Shown here piece by piece: positions 7,448 to 23,001 of a stretch of DNA of 64,000 bases; position 1 is the stretch's first letter; every line of letters begins with the position of its first letter. A model generated the notes under the pieces. The model had not been told where the DNA came from, searched no databases, and was given only the letters and a program-made list of their open reading frames with translations. The translations under genes were made by a program, and so were the position numbers. This stretch comes from an uncultured Clostridia bacterium (lineage in GTDB: Bacteria; Bacillota; Clostridia; Christensenellales; DTU072), in assembly GCA_944349655.1 (NCBI GenBank), contig CALVNL010000003.1, positions 15,252 to 79,251 of the forward strand, given 5' to 3'.

Positions 7448-8116
7448 TTATTTTTTTTCTATTATTCTGTTCAACTGTTCGATGAAATGACTATCTTCAT
7501 CGAAACTAATAATTTCAGCCGTTATATAAACTGTTTCTTCTTCAATATTTATTTCCCCTTTTACAGTAAAAAAATAGAGTCCTTCGTCTTCTGAATATGT
7601 TTCAACGTATTCGATTGCGTATCCGATAACGGTATCTCTTTTTATATACTCTTTATGCTCAAATTCAATATTATAATTCGGATTAACTGCAACCACAAAA
7701 TCCATCTGATTCAGCCCGTCTTCGTCGACAAAATTTACCGAATAAAAAAGAGTTTCTCCGTAATCCTCGTCTTCGAATCTGTTTATACTATAATTACCAT
7801 TGACAAAAGTAAAATATTGTAACTCTTCGTTCAATGCTTCGACTGTTATATTTTGCGAGGATAAGTTTTCCTCTAAATACACTCTTGGAGCCGTATCGTT
7901 TGTTTCGTCTTCGGACCCTATAAAAAATACGCAAAGTAAAACAACCGCTATCGTGATAACGGAAAATACCGTGCCGACAATCAAAGGAATAAATTTCCTT
8001 TTATTCCATGTAACCGATCTCATTTCTTTTTGTTTTTCTTTTAACGTTATCAAAGATTCGGTCTTAGCCAAATTCTTCGTCTGCCTTGCTGCGTATTTTT
8101 TTAATTTCTTATTCAT
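7448..8116 (-). CDS. Single-pass membrane protein (basic cytoplasmic N-terminus, one TM, extracytoplasmic domain); possible anti-sigma factor
   Basis: 222-aa ORF with AAGGTGG RBS. The TM segment FIPLIVGTVFSVITIAVVLLCVFFI follows a ~40-aa K/R-rich N-terminus. Third gene of the sigma-factor operon. The function is an inference only. Confidence 0.6.
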   Translation of the reverse strand: MNKKLKKYAARQTKNLAKTESLITLKEKQKEMRSVTWNKRKFIPLIVGTVFSVITIAVVLLCVFFIGSEDETNDTAPRVYLEENLSSQNITVEALNEELQYFTFVNGNYSINRFEDEDYGETLFYSVNFVDEDGLNQMDFVVAVNPNYNIEFEHKEYIKRDTVIGYAIEYVETYSEDEGLYFFTVKGEINIEEETVYITAEIISFDEDSHFIEQLNRIIEKK

Positions 8117-8127
8117 TATACCACCTT

Positions 8128-9306
8128 TTATGATATCGATAATGCGTACGCGTCATCGATCTGCGTATTATAATTTATATTAAAATAGCCTCTTTTCCTA
8201 AGAAAGAAACCTGAAGCCACCGCTATGTATTTGTCTTGTCTCGTTCCTCCGCTTGTTAAAGCATAAGTTACCTCTTTATATCCGAAACCTGCCATTACAT
8301 GCGCTCCGCTTCCGATTTTATAAGTTAAGTAATCACTGTTTTCTTCGGTGTAAAAGTCGCTTACGGTATAAGTATATAGAAATAATGCCAAAGGTTCCCC
8401 CGCATTTAACTTTTGTTTAGCCGCCGTATAATTAAAAGTGCTGCCGCTCATGCAGGAACTAAACGTTGCCGTGTAACCTTTTCTCGTGCAAAAAGTGCTT
8501 ATTCCGTTCTTAAACTGCGCAACTGTAGTTCCCGATTGCGAGCTTCCCATATCGGAATATAACTGCGTAATCATATTATCCGTAGCCGAACTGCTTTCTT
8601 TATACAGATATAAACTGCCGACTGTTGTTCCCGGTGAATAATCGCCGATAAGATTTGTCTTATATCTGTCCCAATACTGAATTAAATTCCCCCCTGCAAT
8701 CGCCGCACACGCATTTGATAATCCGCCCACTTCATATAACCCGGGATGACGCTTTGCCAATTCATGTTTTACTTCCGTTCTTTCAGAATAATAAACATAT
8801 TCGGATAAACTTCCGTAAATCGTATCATCGGCGCAATAAGCGACTATACTTAATGCTGTTAATGTTTCGTCATCGATTAAAATCCCGTTATCCGCAAAAT
8901 AATAATTGTTATCGTAAAAATAAATATATATTAAAGTTGAAACGTAGATTCTTTGAGCCGCTTCGGGTATAACTTTATACGGGTTTTCCGTGTAAAAAAA
9001 GAATTCTGTCGCAACGAACTGTCCGTCTATGCTTATAATTATCGCATATCCTTGTTCTCCGTTACAGTTGAAATCGTATATAAATCCAAGCAAATTAAGG
9101 TTAATATCAAAAATAGGCTCTTTTGTAACCGTAACCGTCAGAAATTCCTCGTTTCCTTCATATAACTCGCTTATATTTTCCCAAAATACTAAATCGCATT
9201 CGTCGTTATCAAGTTCCTCCGCATAAGCAATACCGCCTATTGTAAATGCGGCTCCCATACAGATTATGATCGTCAAAATTGCCGCTAAAAAAAATATTTT
9301 TTTCAT
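8128..9306 (-). CDS. Secreted papain-like (C10/C1-like) putative cysteine peptidase
   Basis: ORF trimmed to MKKIFFLAAILTIIICMGAAF (GAGGAG RBS). Candidate catalytic Cys context GGLSNACAAIAGGNLIQYW; candidate His context SGAHVMAGFGY. Family assignment is from motif resemblance only. Confidence 0.5.
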   Translation of the reverse strand: MKKIFFLAAILTIIICMGAAFTIGGIAYAEELDNDECDLVFWENISELYEGNEEFLTVTVTKEPIFDINLNLLGFIYDFNCNGEQGYAIIISIDGQFVATEFFFYTENPYKVIPEAAQRIYVSTLIYIYFYDNNYYFADNGILIDDETLTALSIVAYCADDTIYGSLSEYVYYSERTEVKHELAKRHPGLYEVGGLSNACAAIAGGNLIQYWDRYKTNLIGDYSPGTTVGSLYLYKESSSATDNMITQLYSDMGSSQSGTTVAQFKNGISTFCTRKGYTATFSSCMSGSTFNYTAAKQKLNAGEPLALFLYTYTVSDFYTEENSDYLTYKIGSGAHVMAGFGYKEVTYALTSGGTRQDKYIAVASGFFLRKRGYFNINYNTQIDDAYALSIS

Positions 9307-9317
9307 AAACAAACTCC

Positions 9318-9875
9318 TCAAATATCGTTTTTCATAATATAGTTGCATAAAGAGTCCGTAAAAGTGACAGATGAAAAAAATTTTTTTAACTTTTTTATAA
9401 TTCTTTTATGTCTTTGCCTGACCGCATCATAACGTAAATTCAAAATCGCCGCAATTTCTTTTAACTTGTATCCTTCCCAATAATACAAGTCAACAATTTC
9501 CTGTTCGGTTTTATCTAATTGCTTAATTGCATAGTATAAATCACCATAGAGTTCTTCCTTTGTCAGCACATCAACTTCCGCTATGATTTGATTTAAATCT
9601 GAATAAGCGTATCTTGAATCGTATTTAACTTTTCTTTTTGCTAAACTGTCACAGTTCAAATAAACCCAAGTTGTGGGATTAGCAACATACCCGAATTTTT
9701 CTTTTTCCAATAAGCTGTTGAAAAAATCCTGCGCTATATCTTCGGCAAATGTTCTACCGTATTTTTTTCCGATATGATAAATTATTTTTCCATAGTAAAA
9801 ATTATAGAGTTTCTCTAAAGCACGTTCACTTGTCCGTAATGTTTTTAATAATAAGTTAAATTCTATTTCGTTCAA
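9318..9875 (-). CDS. Sigma-70 family (ECF-like) RNA polymerase sigma factor
   Basis: 185 aa. C-terminal region-4 HTH: LYYWEGYKLKEIAAILNLRYDAVRQRHKRIIKKLKK. N-terminal region-2-like segment. Confidence 0.75.
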   Translation of the reverse strand: MNEIEFNLLLKTLRTSERALEKLYNFYYGKIIYHIGKKYGRTFAEDIAQDFFNSLLEKEKFGYVANPTTWVYLNCDSLAKRKVKYDSRYAYSDLNQIIAEVDVLTKEELYGDLYYAIKQLDKTEQEIVDLYYWEGYKLKEIAAILNLRYDAVRQRHKRIIKKLKKFFSSVTFTDSLCNYIMKNDI

Positions 9876-16600: not shown

Positions 16601-19417
16601 ATGGAATATACTAGAGGATCAGAGTGGAGAAGATGGGATTTCCATCTACATACCCCTGACACAAAAAAGAATGATCAGTTCCAAGCGAATGGCAAAGGAA
16701 AATGGGAACTGTTTTATGAAAATATAGCTAATTACATTGGAGATAAAACCAATCCTCAAAAAACAATTGCAGCAGTCGGAATTACCGATTATTTTTCAGT
16801 TGAAAATTATAGAAAAGTAAAATCAGATGGAATATTGGCACGACATATTGACTTTATTTTTCCCAATATAGAACTTAGGTGTCTCCCCCTAAAAGACGGA
16901 GTAAAAATGAATGTTCATTTACTGATTAATCCATCTTTTATCGATAAAGTAGACACTATAATTCTTAGCAATTTAAAGTATTGCTCAATGGATACGGAGT
17001 ATTGTGCTCGTAAAGATGATTTAATAAGATTTGGAAAAGATCTGGATGCATCTTTGGATGATGAAATGGCCTATAAAAAAGGTGTTGAAAATTTTAATAT
17101 CAATTTTGACGATTTAATAAAAATATTAAAAAATCATCCAGAATGTAAAGATAATGTACTTATCTTAATGCCCAATAGGAGTACTGATGGTGCATCTGCA
17201 GTTGGAAATCCTACAAGCCCGTCAGTGGATCTATGTGATTTATGCGAATATAGAAGAGAATTATATAGAACATCGGATATTATTTTATCTGCGAATCCTT
17301 CGGACATAAATTTCTTTTTAGGTAAACGAGATAAGAAACCTGAAAAGATAATGCCTTGCGTTTGGGGGTGTGATGCTCATACAAACGAAGCTATCTTTGA
17401 ACCGCTTAATAGCGAAAAACAACCGACTAAAAGGTATTGCTGGATTAAAGCAGACCCGACATGGGAAGGATTAAAGCAGGTACTATTTGAACCAGAAGAG
17501 CGGGTTCGCATTCAAGAACTATGCCCAGCGGATAGAATTGACAATTATCGAATTATTGATCAAATTGTTATCGAGGATGATACGGTGCCCCATAGATTTT
17601 CGAATGATGCTATTCCCATCAATGAAAATCTTACTTGCATTATAGGTTTAAAGTCAACAGGTAAATCTATATTGCTGCAGAACATTGCACAGGCAATTGA
17701 TCCTACGGAAGTAACGACAAGATTTAATACAGTTTATGCAGGCAAGAGAATTCCTTTTGAGTTTCCCATAAAAGTATATTGGAAAGATGGTACCGTCTCA
17801 TCAAAAGATTCTAAAGATGATAAGAAAATAGTTTATATAGCACAGTCATATCTTAACAAGTTGATGGATGATTGTGCAGAGAAAACAGAAATTGATTCAA
17901 TAATTGAAGGTATAATCACTCAGAACGAAGATTTCTGCATTTTAAAAAAGAGTTTTGATGCAGAATTGATAGATATTCAAAAACAAATAGAATCTAAGAT
18001 TTTAGATTTAATATACAAACAAAGAGAGTTAATTGGACAAGTAGCTGTTATTAAAGATATTGGTAATCGAGAATCGATTGAAAAGAACATCGAACTGTTG
18101 CGCGAAAAAAAAGAATCAATAGCAAAATCTTTAAATCTATCAGCAGAAGATATTGCTAAATACGATAATGCAATTAATAAAAAGCAAGAACTGGAAGAAA
18201 ATTTGATTGTTTTACAGACAGACAGGAATACTATCGAAAACTCACAGTTTAGTGTTTATGTATGTGGTGAAACAAAAATAGTTGATGCTGAAATAACCAA
18301 TATGTACAATAATGCTCTTTCGTTAATAGAAAGTGAAGCATCGAAAAGATGGAATGAGAAAAAGCAAAGTATTGTTAAGAAAATAGACGAAAAATTATCC
18401 ACAATTAATAATGAATTAAAATCTACGATTGATGTCATTGAAGCCTTAAAACCAATGATGGATAGTAATGAAGAGATTAAGAGAATTGAAAATAATTTGA
18501 GGGCAGAAGAAACAAATTTACGAAAGATAAATGCGGAATTTGAAACACTAACTAATATTCAAAAGTCCATAAACTCTATTATAGAGAATATTCTATCTCT
18601 TTCGACATCACGTGAAAACAAATATGATTTATTCGCAGAGCAATTCAAAACGATTCATTTCAAAGATACGAATGAAAACTTTAAAATCATTGCAATAAAA
18701 AGAAGGCGTAGAGTTTACTTCAGAGACACAATAACAAAGATCTTTACACAAAATGCTTTAAAAACAATTCATAATGGTGTTTTTAGAAATTTTGACGATC
18801 CCTCTTTTATTTTAGAAAATGAGTATGACGAGGCTTGTAAAAAAGATTATATAAATGCGATTCTTGAAAACGACACACAAAAAGTTTTGCTAAGTAAATA
18901 TGAAAAAGATCGTGCATTGCAAGAACTATTTGGCGATTTTGATAATATTATTTATACGGTTGAAATGGATGGTGATCTTATCGAGAGTATGTCTCCCGGT
19001 AAAAAGGCATTAGTTCTGTTGAAACTACTTATAAGTCACGATGAGTCAAAATGTCCAATTCTGTTAGATCAGCCCGAAGACGATTTAGATAACCTCTCCA
19101 TAGTATCCGATTTAGTTGCCTTTATAAAAGAACGAAAAAGGGATCGACAAATAGTTTTGGTGACACATAACGCAAATTTGGTCCTAGGCTGTGATGCTGA
19201 AGAAGTAATTGTGGCAAATCAGCAAATAGACAATAATTCACTTACACATAATAAATCATTTAGATTCGAGTATCGCTCTGGATCTATAGAAAATATAACC
19301 ACAACGGATTCAGATACTTTCCTAGGATCAAGAGGCATTCAACAACATATTTGTAATATTCTAGAAGGCGGAAAAGAAGCATTTATTGCAAGGAAAAATA
19401 AATATACCAATTTGTAA
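16601..19417 (+). CDS. Fused PHP-domain phosphoesterase / Rad50-SMC-like coiled-coil ABC ATPase (Ppl/TrlF-like defence protein)
   Basis: Start at the ATG at 16601 (AAGGAG 6 nt upstream). PHP motifs: FHLHTP (H15, H17), GITDYF, NIELR, NVHLLI, GCDAH. Walker A: GLKSTGKS (aa 349-356). A ~300-aa heptad-rich insert follows. Signature-like MSPGKKAL, Walker B ILLDQPEDDLD, H-loop VTHNANL. Confidence 0.75.
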   Translation: MEYTRGSEWRRWDFHLHTPDTKKNDQFQANGKGKWELFYENIANYIGDKTNPQKTIAAVGITDYFSVENYRKVKSDGILARHIDFIFPNIELRCLPLKDGVKMNVHLLINPSFIDKVDTIILSNLKYCSMDTEYCARKDDLIRFGKDLDASLDDEMAYKKGVENFNINFDDLIKILKNHPECKDNVLILMPNRSTDGASAVGNPTSPSVDLCDLCEYRRELYRTSDIILSANPSDINFFLGKRDKKPEKIMPCVWGCDAHTNEAIFEPLNSEKQPTKRYCWIKADPTWEGLKQVLFEPEERVRIQELCPADRIDNYRIIDQIVIEDDTVPHRFSNDAIPINENLTCIIGLKSTGKSILLQNIAQAIDPTEVTTRFNTVYAGKRIPFEFPIKVYWKDGTVSSKDSKDDKKIVYIAQSYLNKLMDDCAEKTEIDSIIEGIITQNEDFCILKKSFDAELIDIQKQIESKILDLIYKQRELIGQVAVIKDIGNRESIEKNIELLREKKESIAKSLNLSAEDIAKYDNAINKKQELEENLIVLQTDRNTIENSQFSVYVCGETKIVDAEITNMYNNALSLIESEASKRWNEKKQSIVKKIDEKLSTINNELKSTIDVIEALKPMMDSNEEIKRIENNLRAEETNLRKINAEFETLTNIQKSINSIIENILSLSTSRENKYDLFAEQFKTIHFKDTNENFKIIAIKRRRRVYFRDTITKIFTQNALKTIHNGVFRNFDDPSFILENEYDEACKKDYINAILENDTQKVLLSKYEKDRALQELFGDFDNIIYTVEMDGDLIESMSPGKKALVLLKLLISHDESKCPILLDQPEDDLDNLSIVSDLVAFIKERKRDRQIVLVTHNANLVLGCDAEEVIVANQQIDNNSLTHNKSFRFEYRSGSIENITTTDSDTFLGSRGIQQHICNILEGGKEAFIARKNKYTNL

Positions 19418-19792
19418 CATGACAACCACGCAAGTACTAAAATCGGGTTTCCAGATTGTTCGGCGCAACGGCGTGGAGGCTTCAAAGTAGCGACTTCTTA
19501 CTATTTCCATAACTCGCTTAGACCGTCGGAAATAGCCAATAAAACGGAGCAAAATAACAAATCGAAAAATTCATTATAAATATGGCTGAAATTGCTGGGT
19601 ACATTAAGGTATAATGAAGATTTTAAAGGTTAGCGCATCACTAAAACAAAAAGAAAATGACCGCCGAAACATCGAGCAAATACCTGTATTATTGTCCTTT
19701 AATAAAACAAGAAGTGCAGCTACACTCTCAAAAAGTTTTAATCATAAAGCGAGTTTTTACACTATATTTATAATAAATCAAGTAATAAATCA

Positions 19793-19818
19793 AGCCGAGA
19801 ATTTTTCTCGGCTTTTTC
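19793..19818 (+). terminator. Rho-independent terminator inside the island's non-coding stretch
   Basis: AGCCGAGA (19793-19800), loop ATTTT, TCTCGGCT (19806-19813), then a T-run. Confidence 0.6.
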
Positions 19819-19889
19819 CATTGTTATTTGCAAGAAAGTTTAATTATCTTTATTTTTTTCTTAATAACCTTGTAAAATCCATTGTCAAA

Positions 19890-20380
19890 TGTCCTATATA
19901 AGTGAGGGGCATTTTTCTTTTGCGAAAAATACGAAGTTTTTGCCCTCTACTGTCCATATGTAGTGAGAAAATCTTTTTCAAAATAAAAAAAGTTTCGTGC
20001 AAACCATTTACTTTCGTGCCGGAAGTTTCCAATTATAGTAGAGGGATATTTTTCAGGAAAGTACGAAGTTTTTACTCTCTGTTGTCCATATATAGTGAGG
20101 AGATTTTCTTCTGTAAGAAAAAAGTTTCCCGTAAACCATTAACTTTTGTACCGGAAGTGTCCAATTATAGTAGAGAAATAATAAATTACCGCGAATTTCT
20201 AAAAACACCCCGCCAAAAGGTATGGTAAGTGTCCAATTATAGTAGGAGAATTTTTTGAAAAAGTTCAGTTAAATACCCTAACAAAGAGATGAAAACTTTC
20301 CAATATAAGTAGAGATGTTTTCAAGAACTTACGAAAAACACCCCCGCAAACAGGCAAGCTAATGTCCATATATAGTGAAC
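19890..20380 (+). repeat. Array of eight ~18-bp direct iteron-like repeats (consensus TGTCCAWWTATAGTRRAG) containing a 132-bp tandem duplication
   Basis: Copies start at 19890, 19951, 20026, 20083, 20158, 20230, 20297 and 20363, all in the same orientation. Two subtypes occur: TGTCCATATATAGTGAG and TGTCCAATTATAGTAGAG. Segments 19931-20044 and 20063-20176 align without gaps, 93 of 114 identical. Confidence 0.85.
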
Positions 20381-20640
20381 GGTAAAGGAGATAACGGATC
20401 ATGAGTTACAAACAAGTGTACCCGCCTTAGCAGGCAGAAAACGGAAAGCAAAAGCCCGAAAAATAAATTGGAAAACGGGTACTTTTTACAAGCAGGATAA
20501 GGTTTTTGCAATCTATTTCAAAAACGGAACTCGAAACAAGTCGGAAACCGACTTTTCGAAAAGGACAACATTTGCTCGTATCCACAAGAAGAAATCGCCC
20601 TGCTTTTACTAAAAATATCGGCGGACTAACGCAAAAGCAC

Positions 20641-20696
20641 TTGACTTACGCACACAAAGCGTGTAAAATATAATCGTCGTATAGATACGATTATAT
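20641..20696 (+). promoter_or_regulatory. Promoter with an overlapping palindromic operator upstream of the small island gene and recombinase
   Basis: TTGACT (20641-20646), 17-nt spacer, TAAAAT (20664-20669). Perfect 10-bp inverted repeat ATATAATCGT (20668-20677) / ACGATTATAT (20687-20696). Confidence 0.55.
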
Positions 20697-20716
20697 ATTC
20701 ACGGAGGAATGAAAAA

Positions 20717-21007
20717 ATGGCAAAGTCAAGAAAGGAAAAAGACAAAAGATACGAAGAACGGCACAAGGAAGAACGCAAAGCCAAAAACGTTATATGGGGA
20801 ACGAGCGTTCCGAGAAAGACGGCGGAAGAAATAAACGAGTTTCTGAAAAAGCACGGCTATACGAAGGTGGAACTTATACAAGCTGGCTACGAAGAACTGT
20901 TAGCCCGACACGATACCGCCTTTGCAAAATTAAAGGACGGCTACGACGATTTTTTCGAGAGCGAACTTACGAAATTCGCAGAAGAAAGAAACAAAAACAA
21001 ATCATAA
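20717..21007 (+). CDS. Small charged protein (96 aa), unknown function; possible DNA-binding accessory factor of the island
   Basis: GGAGG RBS 9 nt upstream. N-terminal K/R/E-rich segment MAKSRKEKDKRYEERHKEERKAKN. The function is inferred only. Confidence 0.55.
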   Translation: MAKSRKEKDKRYEERHKEERKAKNVIWGTSVPRKTAEEINEFLKKHGYTKVELIQAGYEELLARHDTAFAKLKDGYDDFFESELTKFAEERNKNKS

Positions 21008-21130
21008 TCCGTAAGACGAGATACTCTCGCCTTGCGGAAATCTGAGATAAGGAGGATTTTGCGGTAATGGTGAGAGAACATTACAGCCATCAGGAAAGAG
21101 AACATAGTATCCGCGCAATAAGTATGAACG

Positions 21131-21328
21131 TTGAAGCGGATACAAGAAAACACCGTTGAGGTCAATCTGTCAACGGGACACAAAGAAAAAGGCAGATTAA
21201 ATCTGCCGAAAGAAAGAATACAAACAAGCGCAAAAATTTTAGCCGATATTTTACTCGACTATGCGAGAAACGGCGGTAATATGGACGTTTTAACGCCCGA
21301 GAGCGTATTCGGCAGGAGAAAGCAATGA
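21131..21328 (+). CDS. Hypothetical small ORF overlapping the recombinase start (ATGA)
   Basis: TTG start, no clear RBS. Support comes only from the 4-nt overlap with the recombinase ATG. Confidence 0.25.
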   Translation: MKRIQENTVEVNLSTGHKEKGRLNLPKERIQTSAKILADILLDYARNGGNMDVLTPESVFGRRKQ

Positions 21329-22932
21329 AAAAGCGAGTAGTTATATATGCAAGGTTCAGTTCGCACAGTCAGACGGAACAGTCTATCGAAGGACAACTTC
21401 GGGAATGCTACGAGTATGCAAAAAGACAGGACCTTCTCGTTGTAGCCGAATACATTGACCGTGCGCTTACGGGTACTACGGACAAACGCCCCGAATTTTT
21501 AAGAATGATCGACGACAGTAAGAAAAAGACTTTCGACTATGTTCTTGTTTACCAACTTGATCGCTTTGCCCGTAACCGTTACGACAGCGCGAATTACAAA
21601 GCAAAGTTAAAGAAAAACGGCGTGCGTGTTCTATCTGCAAAGGAAAACATAACGGAAGACGCAAGCGGAATTTTAATCGAGGGCGTGCTGGAAAGTATGG
21701 CGGAGTATTACTCCGCCGAACTTTCGCAAAAGGTAAAACGCGGAATACGGGAAAGTTACGAAAAAGGTTACTTTATCGGCGGATACGGATTATTCGGCTA
21801 TGACATCGTGGACAAAAAATGGACGATAAACAGTTACGAAGCGGATATTGTAAGAGATATTTTTACAAGATACAAAAACGGCGAAAAGGCGAAAGAAATT
21901 ATTGCAAGGCTGAACGGACAAGGCATTAAGACGAAAGCCGGTTCGTCGTTCAATATGAACAGTCTTGCAAGGATAATCCGCAACGAAAAATACATCGGGA
22001 AAGTAACTTCACACGGCACGGTTTACACTAATGTCATACCGCCTATCGTGGACGAAGAACTTTTTTATGAATGCAACGTCATTATGGACAAGCATAAACA
22101 TAAACCGCGCGATAGCAAGAGCGAACAGCCATATATTTTAAGCGGAAAATTGTTTTGCGGATTTTGCGGTAGTCTGATGACCGCCGAAACGGGAACAAGC
22201 CATACAGGTAAACTTCATCACTATTACAAGTGTTTCGGAAGAAAACGCAACAAACACAGTTGTAAAAAGGCAAATTACAGACAGCAAGACCTTGAAGATC
22301 TGGTCTTCGGCACGACGGTTAAATACGTTCTGCAACCCGACGTAATTCAAACCGTTGCCGAACAGGTCGTTTCAAAATTCAATTCGGAGATAACAAAGAC
22401 CGCAACGCTTGAAAATCTCGAAAACGAGTTGAAAGCCAAAGAAAAAGCGATATACGCACTGCTTGCCGCCATAGAACAAGGCATAGTGACTAAATCCACC
22501 AAAGAACGACTGATTTCTCTCGAAACGCAAAAAGAGGAATTAGAGAGCAAAATTTTACTTGAAAAGGCTCGGCAGATAAAACCGCTCGAAGTGGACAAAG
22601 TAAAAGCGTTTTTAACCTATTTTGCCCGTAAAAAGTATGAAAACGGGCAAGAAAAAAACGAGTTTTTCAACTCGTTCATAAACCGTGTTATTTTGTATGA
22701 CGACAAAATTTTAATCTTTTACAACACAGACGATAATCACCCGACGGTAATCAAGAGAAAAAATACGGAAGAATTGGTTTCGCAACTTAACGACATAGAG
22801 AGCAACGGCAAAACCGCAATAAATGACTGCCTGAACGCAACGGGAAACAACAGCCCAAGCGTACAAAATGAAAACTCGCTTGAACCTCAAGGGTTCAAAC
22901 GAGTTTCACTTGGCGGAGAGAGTGGGATTTGA
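21325..22932 (+). CDS. Large serine recombinase (resolvase/invertase N-domain, recombinase domain, zinc ribbon, coiled coil)
   Basis: VVIYARFSSHSQTEQSIEGQ and LDRFARN (serine-recombinase catalytic domain). Cys cluster CGFCGSLM..YYKCFGRKRNKHSC. 535 aa. The 3' end overlaps the tRNA by 22 nt. Confidence 0.9.
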   Translation: MKKRVVIYARFSSHSQTEQSIEGQLRECYEYAKRQDLLVVAEYIDRALTGTTDKRPEFLRMIDDSKKKTFDYVLVYQLDRFARNRYDSANYKAKLKKNGVRVLSAKENITEDASGILIEGVLESMAEYYSAELSQKVKRGIRESYEKGYFIGGYGLFGYDIVDKKWTINSYEADIVRDIFTRYKNGEKAKEIIARLNGQGIKTKAGSSFNMNSLARIIRNEKYIGKVTSHGTVYTNVIPPIVDEELFYECNVIMDKHKHKPRDSKSEQPYILSGKLFCGFCGSLMTAETGTSHTGKLHHYYKCFGRKRNKHSCKKANYRQQDLEDLVFGTTVKYVLQPDVIQTVAEQVVSKFNSEITKTATLENLENELKAKEKAIYALLAAIEQGIVTKSTKERLISLETQKEELESKILLEKARQIKPLEVDKVKAFLTYFARKKYENGQEKNEFFNSFINRVILYDDKILIFYNTDDNHPTVIKRKNTEELVSQLNDIESNGKTAINDCLNATGNNSPSVQNENSLEPQGFKRVSLGGESGI

Positions 22933-22936
22933 ACCC
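22891..22936. repeat. Perfect 9-bp inverted repeat GGGTTCAAA / TTTGAACCC spanning 46 bp, centred on the tRNA CCA end (att-site-like)
   Basis: Arms at 22891-22899 and 22928-22936; the right arm is the tRNA T-arm. A further TTGAACC copy lies at 22880-22886. Confidence 0.6.
22909..22916. repeat. Right copy of the 8-bp direct repeat CTTGGCGG (putative att core)
   Basis: Identical to 10102-10109. Covers the tRNA 3'-terminal CCGCCA plus 2 nt. Confidence 0.55.
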
Positions 22937-23001
22937 ACGGTACGCTTTTGGCGTACACACGATTTCCAATCGTGCTCCTTCGACCCCTCGGACATCTCTC
23001 C
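22911..23001 (-). tRNA. tRNA-Ser (anticodon GGA), class II with long variable arm, CCA encoded
   Basis: Hand fold of the minus-strand sequence. Acceptor GGAGAGA/TCTCTCC; D stem TCC/GGA; anticodon stem CACGA/TCGTG with loop TTGGAAA. Variable arm GTACGC/GCGTAC; T stem GTGGG/CCCAC with loop TTCAAAT; discriminator G then CCA. 91 nt. Confidence 0.9.

Follow-up and report, generated by a model that had tools for sequence, protein, structure and literature searches.

A repeated and separable non-coding cassette preceding the mobility genes in defence islands of Christensenellales

The window analysed here is a stretch of 64,000 nucleotides of an uncultured Clostridia bacterium of the order Christensenellales (assembly GCA_944349655.1, contig CALVNL010000003.1, positions 15,252 to 79,251 of the forward strand), and all coordinates below are those of the window unless a relative is named. 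It contains a genomic island with a large serine recombinase gene, and within this island the stretch from 19418 to 20716, flanked by the gene of a 940-amino-acid (aa) PHP/SMC-like ATPase and by an open reading frame (ORF) of 96 aa, carries eight copies of an 18-bp repeat, all on the + strand, with the core consensus TGTCCAWWTATAGTRRAG. The repeats belong to a cassette that recurs in related islands and that is most likely an undescribed transcription-control or protein-docking unit, and not a replication origin or a centromere. The array consists of the following features.

19890-19907, + strand: core 1, TGTCCTATATAAGTGAGG, a diverged copy found by profile
19951-19968, + strand: core 2, TGTCCATATGTAGTGAGA
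20026-20043, + strand: core 3, TTTCCAATTATAGTAGAG
20083-20100, + strand: core 4, TGTCCATATATAGTGAGG
20158-20175, + strand: core 5, TGTCCAATTATAGTAGAG
20230-20247, + strand: core 6, TGTCCAATTATAGTAGGA, with an ACCCC box ahead of it at 20211-20223
20297-20314, + strand: core 7, TTTCCAATATAAGTAGAG
20363-20380, + strand: core 8, TGTCCATATATAGTGAAC, with an ACCCC box ahead of it at 20333-20346
19856-20383, + strand: cassette body of eight composite units of ~60 bp, found with a 68-nt unit profile
19926-20175, + strand: two-unit tandem duplication of 132 bp, found with Tandem Repeats Finder, a gain of units by duplication

Successive cores are 61, 75, 57, 75, 72, 67 and 66 bp apart, in agreement with the first-pass annotation of this DNA, which had described eight co-oriented repeats between 19890 and 20380 at a spacing of 57-75 bp. 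A degenerate pattern of the core matched the window 10 times, compared to 2.1 matches expected, and none of 100 shuffled sequences reached 10. Seven of the 10 matches lie inside the array, core 1 being too diverged for the pattern and recovered by the profile only. The 68-nt unit profile gave eight matches of 15-32 bits in the whole 1.66-Mb genome, all of them in the array, and blastn with the array stretch found no match in plasmid and phage collections. The two core subtypes that had been seen to alternate are real, as is the tandem duplication of 132 bp, for which Tandem Repeats Finder gave a period of 132, 1.9 copies and 81% matches and a direct-repeat search 131 nt at 79%. The stretch had also been called gene-free. 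This is effectively so for the two mechanically predicted ORFs of 95 and 108 aa, which have no family matches and whose frames are not open in an 89%-identical relative, but not for a conserved mini-ORF of 9 codons that follows the last repeat.

Loci of the 96-aa protein family were searched in reference genomes, where 282 were found and 80 fetched, mostly from Christensenellales and including cultured Pumilibacter strains. Of these strains, P. intestinalis CLA-AA-M10 and P. muris CLA-AA-M08 account for the related modules L058, L060 and L073, the first of which contains subtype-3 units. A profile search detected 24 arrays of 2-10 units each (in ~25 of the 80 related loci), and every unit scoring at least 9 bits in the 764 kb of loci lies in an array and is oriented with the genes for the small, possibly ribbon-helix-helix (RHH) protein, the recombinase and the relaxase. 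The array thus recurs co-oriented in related islands, and its presumed tie to the recombinase module is confirmed: the cassette is conserved, with 2-10 units and three core subtypes. About 70% of the related modules lack a detected subtype 1 or 2 array, and the array is therefore dispensable to the mobility module; as the profile under-detects subtype-3 units, the ~30% of modules that carry an array is a lower bound. A stringent two-copy pattern was found across the order in 4 of 401 genomes, belonging to three genera. Pattern scans of IMG/VR gave ~100 chance matches and one true array, which precedes the same pair of RHH and recombinase genes.

The comparison of closely related islands showed that the cassette keeps its position when the cargo changes. 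In another genome of the same genus (G027), contig C7 matches the window at 89% identity over the array region (starting at 20041), the 96-aa gene and the recombinase, with a wholly different cargo (RhuM, type III restriction-modification and RES proteins) and an integration at tRNA-Ser(CGA). In contig C33 of the same genome, a three-unit array precedes a small protein of 67% identity and a pair of TnpX-like recombinases, with a cargo set of AAA, radical-SAM and RNase III proteins. The homology with the near-identical modules of L022, L026 and L027 and with the distant ones of L018 and L082 begins only at 20484-20494. Three placements of the cassette were found. In subtype 2 (L086, L091, L094, L095, L098 and L099) it immediately precedes the promoter that serves the 96-aa gene; in the window it lies ~330 bp upstream of this promoter, with a conserved terminator-bearing element in between; elsewhere it lies upstream of a Mob_Pre relaxase (L061 and L066) or of DUF6291 and a MobL relaxase (L034, L036, L037, L045 and L051). 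The cassette is therefore a separable non-coding unit at the upstream edge of the mobility module, constant in position while the cargo varies. The relaxase genes beside the arrays indicate that these relatives are integrative mobilisable elements, of which the window island is a relaxase-less version, and the islands in which the cassette occurs form a Christensenellales family of defence islands that are integrative and often mobilisable.

Some further observations were made on these islands. An IS-like (insertion sequence) gene on the opposite strand stands exactly at the boundary between cassette and module (~20484 in the window) in L022 (700-1570) and also at the ends of L026 and L027, contigs that end ~1.7 kb upstream. 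The set of AAA/ClpB-like, radical-SAM, DEDDh exonuclease and mini-RNase III genes recurs as cargo before arrays (L018, 2722-9312; L061, 1396-4293). A strongly conserved 27-bp sequence, GACTTGCAAGCGGTCTTAAAATGCTTG, which contains a GCAAGC/GCTTGC inverted repeat, separates the mini-ORF from the DUF6291-MobL genes and was found ~2.2-2.7 kb upstream of the small-protein gene in L034, L036, L037, L045, L051, L058, L060 and L073; it is a candidate origin of transfer (oriT) of the MobL-type elements.

The 18-bp repeat proved to be the core of a longer module of ~60 bp. From 77 non-redundant units of the 24 arrays, anchored on the core, a grammar was drawn in which an A/T tract is followed by an ACCCC box, a fixed interval of 24-25 nt, the core motif AAGTGTCC, a TATAGT-like box, GGAGGG and an AT-rich palindrome. 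The information content peaks at the A-run/T-run (-32 to -24), at CCC(C) (-15 to -12), at AAGTGTCC (up to 2.5 bits), at TA.AGT and at GGAGGG. The ACCCC box, with 0.6-1.2 bits at a fixed position, is followed by CAAA in subtype 1, and of the 55 units having an ACC box, 42 show a distance of 24-25 nt between the start of this box and the start of the core T(C/G)C. The secondary repeat AAAAACACCCCGC, which had been noted between the cores at 20211-20223 and 20333-20346, is real and actually is this fixed part of the unit. Three core subtypes were distinguished, AAGTGTCCAWWTATAGT (that of the window), AAGTGTSCTTGGTTAWRT and GGCTTTATTATAGAGGG (that of Pumilibacter), and a purine-rich box resembling a Shine-Dalgarno (SD) sequence is kept in every unit. 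The AT-rich palindrome (TTTTYNRAAAA-like) occurs in 22 of 53 spacers, compared to 1.7 in shuffled sequences. These enriched palindromes are also CodY-like, but the genome has no CodY, and CodY boxes were rejected as an explanation.

Across the arrays the spacings vary between 54 and 78 bp, with clusters at about 56, 63-67 and 73-78 bp. A period of ~10.6 bp fits them best (R = 0.40, p = 0.006 against a uniform null, with periods of 9.5-11.5 bp scanned); the test gives p = 0.0065 for subtype 2 taken by itself and p = 0.07 for subtype 1. The repeats had been described as phased, and this helical periodicity, which is as expected of proteins docking on DNA, supports the description; it is suggestive and not conclusive, its statistical weight being lowered by the kinship of units that arose by duplication. 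Among near-identical cassettes the number of units varies from 6 to 10, and this variation, together with the recent 132-bp duplication, indicates that multiplicity itself seems to be maintained.

The surroundings of the array, in the order in which they are read on the + strand, are the following.

19792-19821, + strand: intrinsic terminator closing the upstream defence operon, with a 10-bp stem and a T-run; the array begins beyond it
20385-20390, + strand: Shine-Dalgarno sequence AAGGAG, read from the sequence
20401-20430, + strand: mini-ORF of 9 codons, MSYKQVYPP*, ending in Pro-Pro-stop, read from the sequence
20418-20487, + strand: long hairpin GTACCCG...CGGGTAC followed by TTTTT, read from the sequence
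20484-20558, + strand: conserved non-coding element, CAAGCAGGATAAGG ... GTCGGAAACCGAC and a T-run, terminator-like, found by homology
20641-20699, + strand: canonical promoter TTGACT-17-TAAAAT overlapped by the palindrome AATCGTCGTATAGATACGATT at 20665-20699, ahead of the 96-aa gene
20717-21007, + strand: gene of a 96-aa basic protein, the partner of the recombinase, with 481 clusters of relatives
21325-22932, + strand: gene of the large serine recombinase, with Resolvase, Recombinase and Zn_ribbon_recom domains
22911-23001, - strand: tRNA-Ser(GGA); the island is integrated at its 3' end, which marks the right island boundary (~22.9 kb)

The order of the island is thus cargo, terminator, array, promoter with palindrome, 96-aa gene and large serine recombinase gene, the 3' end of the last overlapping the tRNA-Ser(GGA) gene. 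The cargo comprises a SIR2 protein, a restriction-modification-like methyltransferase with a specificity subunit, and the PHP/SMC ATPase. No relaxase gene was found in the window island.

A leader-like region follows the array with great regularity. In 22 of 24 arrays the last core is followed, within ~110 nt, by a strong SD sequence with an ORF of 2-15 codons, and a terminator-like hairpin lies at most 260 nt upstream of the array in 18 of 23. The peptide MSYKQVYPP is identical in L021, L023, L025, L101 and L102, with the variants MRYKQVYPP and MSYKQGYPP elsewhere; the mini-ORFs of other elements read MSG*, MR(Y)*, M(M)NPNTS* and MKLDTS*. In the window, the mini-ORF supplies with its 3' half the 5' arm of the GTACCCG...CGGGTAC hairpin, a layout from which we infer, and only infer, a resemblance to a ribosome-dependent (translation-sensitive) attenuator. 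No canonical sigma-A promoter is present in the window between 19615 and 20641, and sigma-A sites (TTGACA, 16-18 nt, TATAAT) are depleted inside the 24 arrays, with 5 found and 17.3 +/- 3.8 expected. A fit of canonical sigma-A -35 and -10 boxes to the units was tried on either strand and rejected, the antisense TATAAT of some cores having no -35 box.

The conserved element at 20484-20558 was also observed in L031 (~-640 to -420) and L095 (~-520 to -330), positions being counted from the small-protein gene. Its motif is CAAGCAGGWTAARG ... GYCGG-GAAA-CCGRC with a T-run, and in subtype-2 loci it has its own TTGCAA-18-TATTTT promoter. It lies upstream of the array in L031, L086 and L095 and downstream of it in the window, and may represent either a terminator module or the gene of a small RNA of ~170-190 nt. 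The interval that separates the 96-aa gene from the recombinase gene contains, at 21050-21121, two direct copies of GAGAGAACAT(T/A)... (GAGAGAACATAGTATCC in relatives); they are conserved at 84% in the distant relative L018 (10300-10372).

The 96-aa protein was proposed by the first-pass annotation as the binder of the array. It has an invariant WGTS strand followed by two helices. The AlphaFold2 (AF2) monomer, with a predicted local distance difference test (pLDDT) score of 66, shows an extended segment at residues 22-32 and then two helices, and the best Foldseek matches are the RHH proteins ORF56, VapB and NikA, all with E > 1. No significant match was obtained in Pfam, in the PDB or in hidden Markov model searches, and on the model the protein is possibly an RHH protein. 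It appears to have an operator of its own, as a palindrome CGTAT-N1-3-ATACG precedes the small-protein gene in 77 of 79 related loci and a promoter TTGACN-16/18-TANNNT in 76 of 79, and the palindrome AATCGTCGTATAGATACGATT of the window is the probable autoregulatory operator of the protein. The half-site of this operator occurs in the arrays at chance level (7 in 8.1 kb), and the subtype of the array does not track the phylogeny or the identity classes of the protein. Both results speak against the protein as the reader of the array.

The array had also been considered as accessory sites of the recombinase. This proposal is not supported: serine recombinases of different types accompany the same array, which does not resemble the attachment (att) sites. 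A single likeness, between the CCGCCAA in the ACCCC box and the crossover core CCGCCAAG, was rejected because the box occurs with other recombinase types and targets.

Taken together, the fixed grammar, the single orientation, the terminator upstream, the leader downstream and the lack of an RNA fold leave a module that acts at the level of DNA. A promoter is favoured because it is the commonest DNA element of ~60 bp with a fixed internal spacing and a strict orientation. Moreover, since the array has no canonical sigma-A site and the mini-ORF is conserved, the transcript of the mini-ORF would have to start at a non-canonical site inside the array. The reading that we prefer, with a probability of roughly 0.4, is that the cassette may be a stack of non-canonical promoter or activator modules of sigma-I- or ECF-like (extracytoplasmic function) geometry, which would be read by a factor from outside the island and would gate transcription into the excision genes. 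The reading factor would act in trans and be encoded by the host or by a helper. Transcription would start inside the stack and run into the leader with its strong ribosome-binding site and mini-ORF; in the window island it could then be attenuated at the mini-ORF and the terminator-like hairpin. Read-through would reach the genes of the 96-aa regulator and of the serine recombinase, and the cassette would in this way gate excision and transfer of the island.

Several points weigh against this stack of promoters. The -10 position of the units reads GTCC/GTGC and not CGWA, and neither an RsgI_N domain nor an evident SigI was found in the genome, which is 96% complete and whose sigma inventory consists of SigA, the sporulation sigmas and two ECF sigmas. 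The GGAGGG box sits downstream of the putative start site and is conserved without obvious reason. The helical periodicity is not required of independent promoters and fits cooperative docking of a protein equally well. Outside the array, the unit profile found no single-copy site in the 1.66-Mb genome, the best score being 8.6 bits, so that a host sigma factor acting as reader would have no other detectable target there. The ECF sigma gene adjoining the island lacks a homologue in the other array-bearing loci; its adjacency looks coincidental, and it was rejected as the reader of the units. Finally, a seven-unit array in G020:C7 (L019, 10556-10975), located between trkH and a GNAT gene, has its own SD sequence and a mini-ORF of 15 codons, with no small protein, recombinase or relaxase nearby; this orphan array is either a relic or an independently functioning cassette. 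The operon of the ECF-type sigma factor was observed at 7448-9875, just outside the left end of the island. Sporulation-sigma promoters, a DnaA box and a Firmicutes dif site were also looked for by eye against consensus sequences, with no convincing match.

An alternative that we regard as doubtful is that of a non-transcriptional docking scaffold, in which a host or helper DNA-binding protein coats the phased units and builds a nucleoprotein structure that aids excision or transfer, the latter as an enhancer of the relaxosome or oriT or, where the transferred strand trails, as a priming region. The spacing clusters and the ~10.6-bp period (p = 0.006), strongest in subtype 2, are in its favour, as are the AT-rich palindromes in 22 of the 53 spacers against 1.7 in shuffles. 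In the relaxase-bearing relatives an oriT-like inverted repeat and the mob gene follow closely downstream of the array, and the window island has no relaxase of its own, so its transfer would need trans-acting factors. However, a scaffold leaves the SD sequence and mini-ORF of 22 of the 24 arrays and the strict co-orientation unexplained, the likeness to the pMV158 oriT is limited to the 7-mer TATAGTG with no adjoining hairpin, and the test of periodicity is weakened by the kinship of duplicated units (subtype 1 alone, p = 0.07).

A more specific reading, which we hold to be unlikely, would make the cassette a sensor for a hitch-hiking island, its stack of diversified promoters or docking sites being readable only by a sigma factor or activator that a helper, either a conjugative element or a phage, provides. 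If this were true, the relaxase-less island would excise and become transferable only with an active vehicle in the cell, and stacking and mixing of subtypes would widen the range of helpers sensed.

The array could also act as RNA, and two forms of this idea were weighed. A repetitive structured RNA, which had been suggested for the stretch, found no support: the Rfam check of 19000-21400 at E <= 1 gave no match, and the folding of 53 non-redundant spacers compared to dinucleotide shuffles gave a mean z of -0.02 in sense and -0.23 in antisense. RNA hairpins between GAGGGG and CACCCC boxes, promising by eye, were rejected on the same folding values (z ~0 on both strands). An unstructured RNA, that is a long leader or non-coding RNA with up to 10 SD-like motifs in single-stranded form (UAGUAGGAGG, GUGAGGGG) on which ribosomes or an RNA-binding protein would be soaked up or loaded, would account for the SD-like purine box in every unit, the true SD sequence and mini-ORF after the array and the single orientation of the units. 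It is nevertheless improbable, as a terminator stands upstream with no canonical promoter to drive the transcript, the A/T tract, the ACCCC box and the ~10.6-bp period reflect the geometry of the DNA helix and not of RNA, and the folding values show neither a signal nor a difference between strands, with no Rfam family matched.

Replication-origin iterons or a partition centromere bound by the 96-aa protein were what the first-pass annotation had thought of foremost, and the direct, multiple and helically phased repeats, the small neighbour that is probably RHH-like, as are ParG, omega and CopG, and the uncharacterised DUF6291 protein that follows the array in a few relatives would agree with them. 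The same annotation had seen no Rep or Par protein in the island, and Pfam, PADLOC and PHROGs scans, which covered every ORF of the island as well as three related islands, likewise found none; Rep, ParA, ParM and TubZ were not found in the island or its relatives. The units are composite and 54-78 bp apart, unlike the contiguous repeats of ~11-22 bp of iterons. The operator predicted for the 96-aa protein occurs in 77 of 79 loci; the repeats do not match it, and its half-site is at chance level in the arrays. The presumed DNA-reading strand of the protein is invariant against three core subtypes, and ~70% of the related modules have no detected subtype 1 or 2 array. Both readings are accordingly very unlikely. 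Functionless debris, such as a decaying tandem duplication or the scars of past recombination, would fit the recent 132-bp duplication, the variable copy number and the one orphan array, but can hardly be reconciled with boxes at fixed spacing across 77 diverged units of three subtypes in several families of the order, with the strict orientation and position or with the depletion of sigma-A-like sites.

Gut Firmicutes commonly carry defence islands that are moved by large serine recombinases. The present analysis defines a conserved and separable non-coding cassette before the mobility genes, with a grammar of box order, spacing, phasing and leader mini-ORF, which provides a concrete handle on the control of island mobility and removes from this stretch a tempting but wrong annotation as origin or centromere. 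If the reader is encoded by a helper, the cassette would show how minimal, relaxase-less islands sense their vehicle. A 2-10-fold stack of alternative-sigma promoters was not found described in a limited literature search.

Among known systems, repeat arrays of the ToxI and CRISPR (clustered regularly interspaced short palindromic repeats) types share with the cassette a location in a defence island and a terminator-like hairpin after the array. CRISPR arrays consist of near-identical repeats of 23-50 bp with unique spacers, accompanied by cas genes or a leader, whereas the cassette has degenerate cores and mutually related spacers, and no cas gene was found. Type III toxin-antitoxin RNAs consist of exact tandem repeats of ~36 nt followed by a ToxN, AbiQ or CptN gene, whereas the units of the cassette are diverged, occur every 54-78 bp and are followed by a mini-ORF and an RHH-like gene, with no endoribonuclease toxin; PADLOC gave no type III toxin-antitoxin match on the island.

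Iterons and sopC- or RHH-type centromeres resemble the array in their multiple phased direct repeats, in one orientation and beside a small, possibly RHH protein. Replication-origin iterons are contiguous repeats of 17-22 bp, about two helical turns apart, beside an AT-rich unwinding region. In contrast to iterons and centromeres, the array has no initiator or partition nucleoside triphosphatase, its composite unit measures ~65 bp as against 11-43 bp, the operator of the RHH-like protein lies apart from it, and the array is absent from most related modules.

In the oriT of pMV158 (MOBV), the nick sequence GTGTG/TT stands 8 nt after an inverted repeat (PMC3105389). The array lies upstream of Mob_Pre in relatives and shares TATAGTG with the nick region GTATAGTGTG/TT, but no hairpin or inverted repeat adjoins the motif of the unit, and the Mob_Pre relative has a better oriT candidate in a long inverted repeat between the array and mob. 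To our knowledge, eight copies of an oriT would be unprecedented.

In Tn916, the orf12 leader upstream of tet(M) feeds the excision genes. Such tandem early promoters and leader attenuators resemble the cassette as a non-coding control region before regulatory and recombinase genes; the mini-ORF of the window overlaps a terminator-like hairpin, and the direction of transcription would be towards the mobility genes. The difference is that in the cassette a stack of up to 10 repeated modules precedes the leader and that an attenuator is suggested for the window subtype only.

The sigma-I promoters, finally, have the published consensus ACCCCC/CGAA in Bacillales and CCCYYAAA-13/14-CGWA for sigma-I3 of C. 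thermocellum (PMC4711584). They differ from the units in that the known ones are single, whereas the units are stacked 2-10 times, and in that the units read GTCC/GTGC at -10, in a genome without RsgI_N or an evident sigI. They resemble them in the C-rich -35 box, ACCCC followed by A residues in the units, in the upstream A-tract, in the short fixed spacer and in having no TTGACA/TATAAT, the most conserved bases of the units being located where a -10 box would fall.

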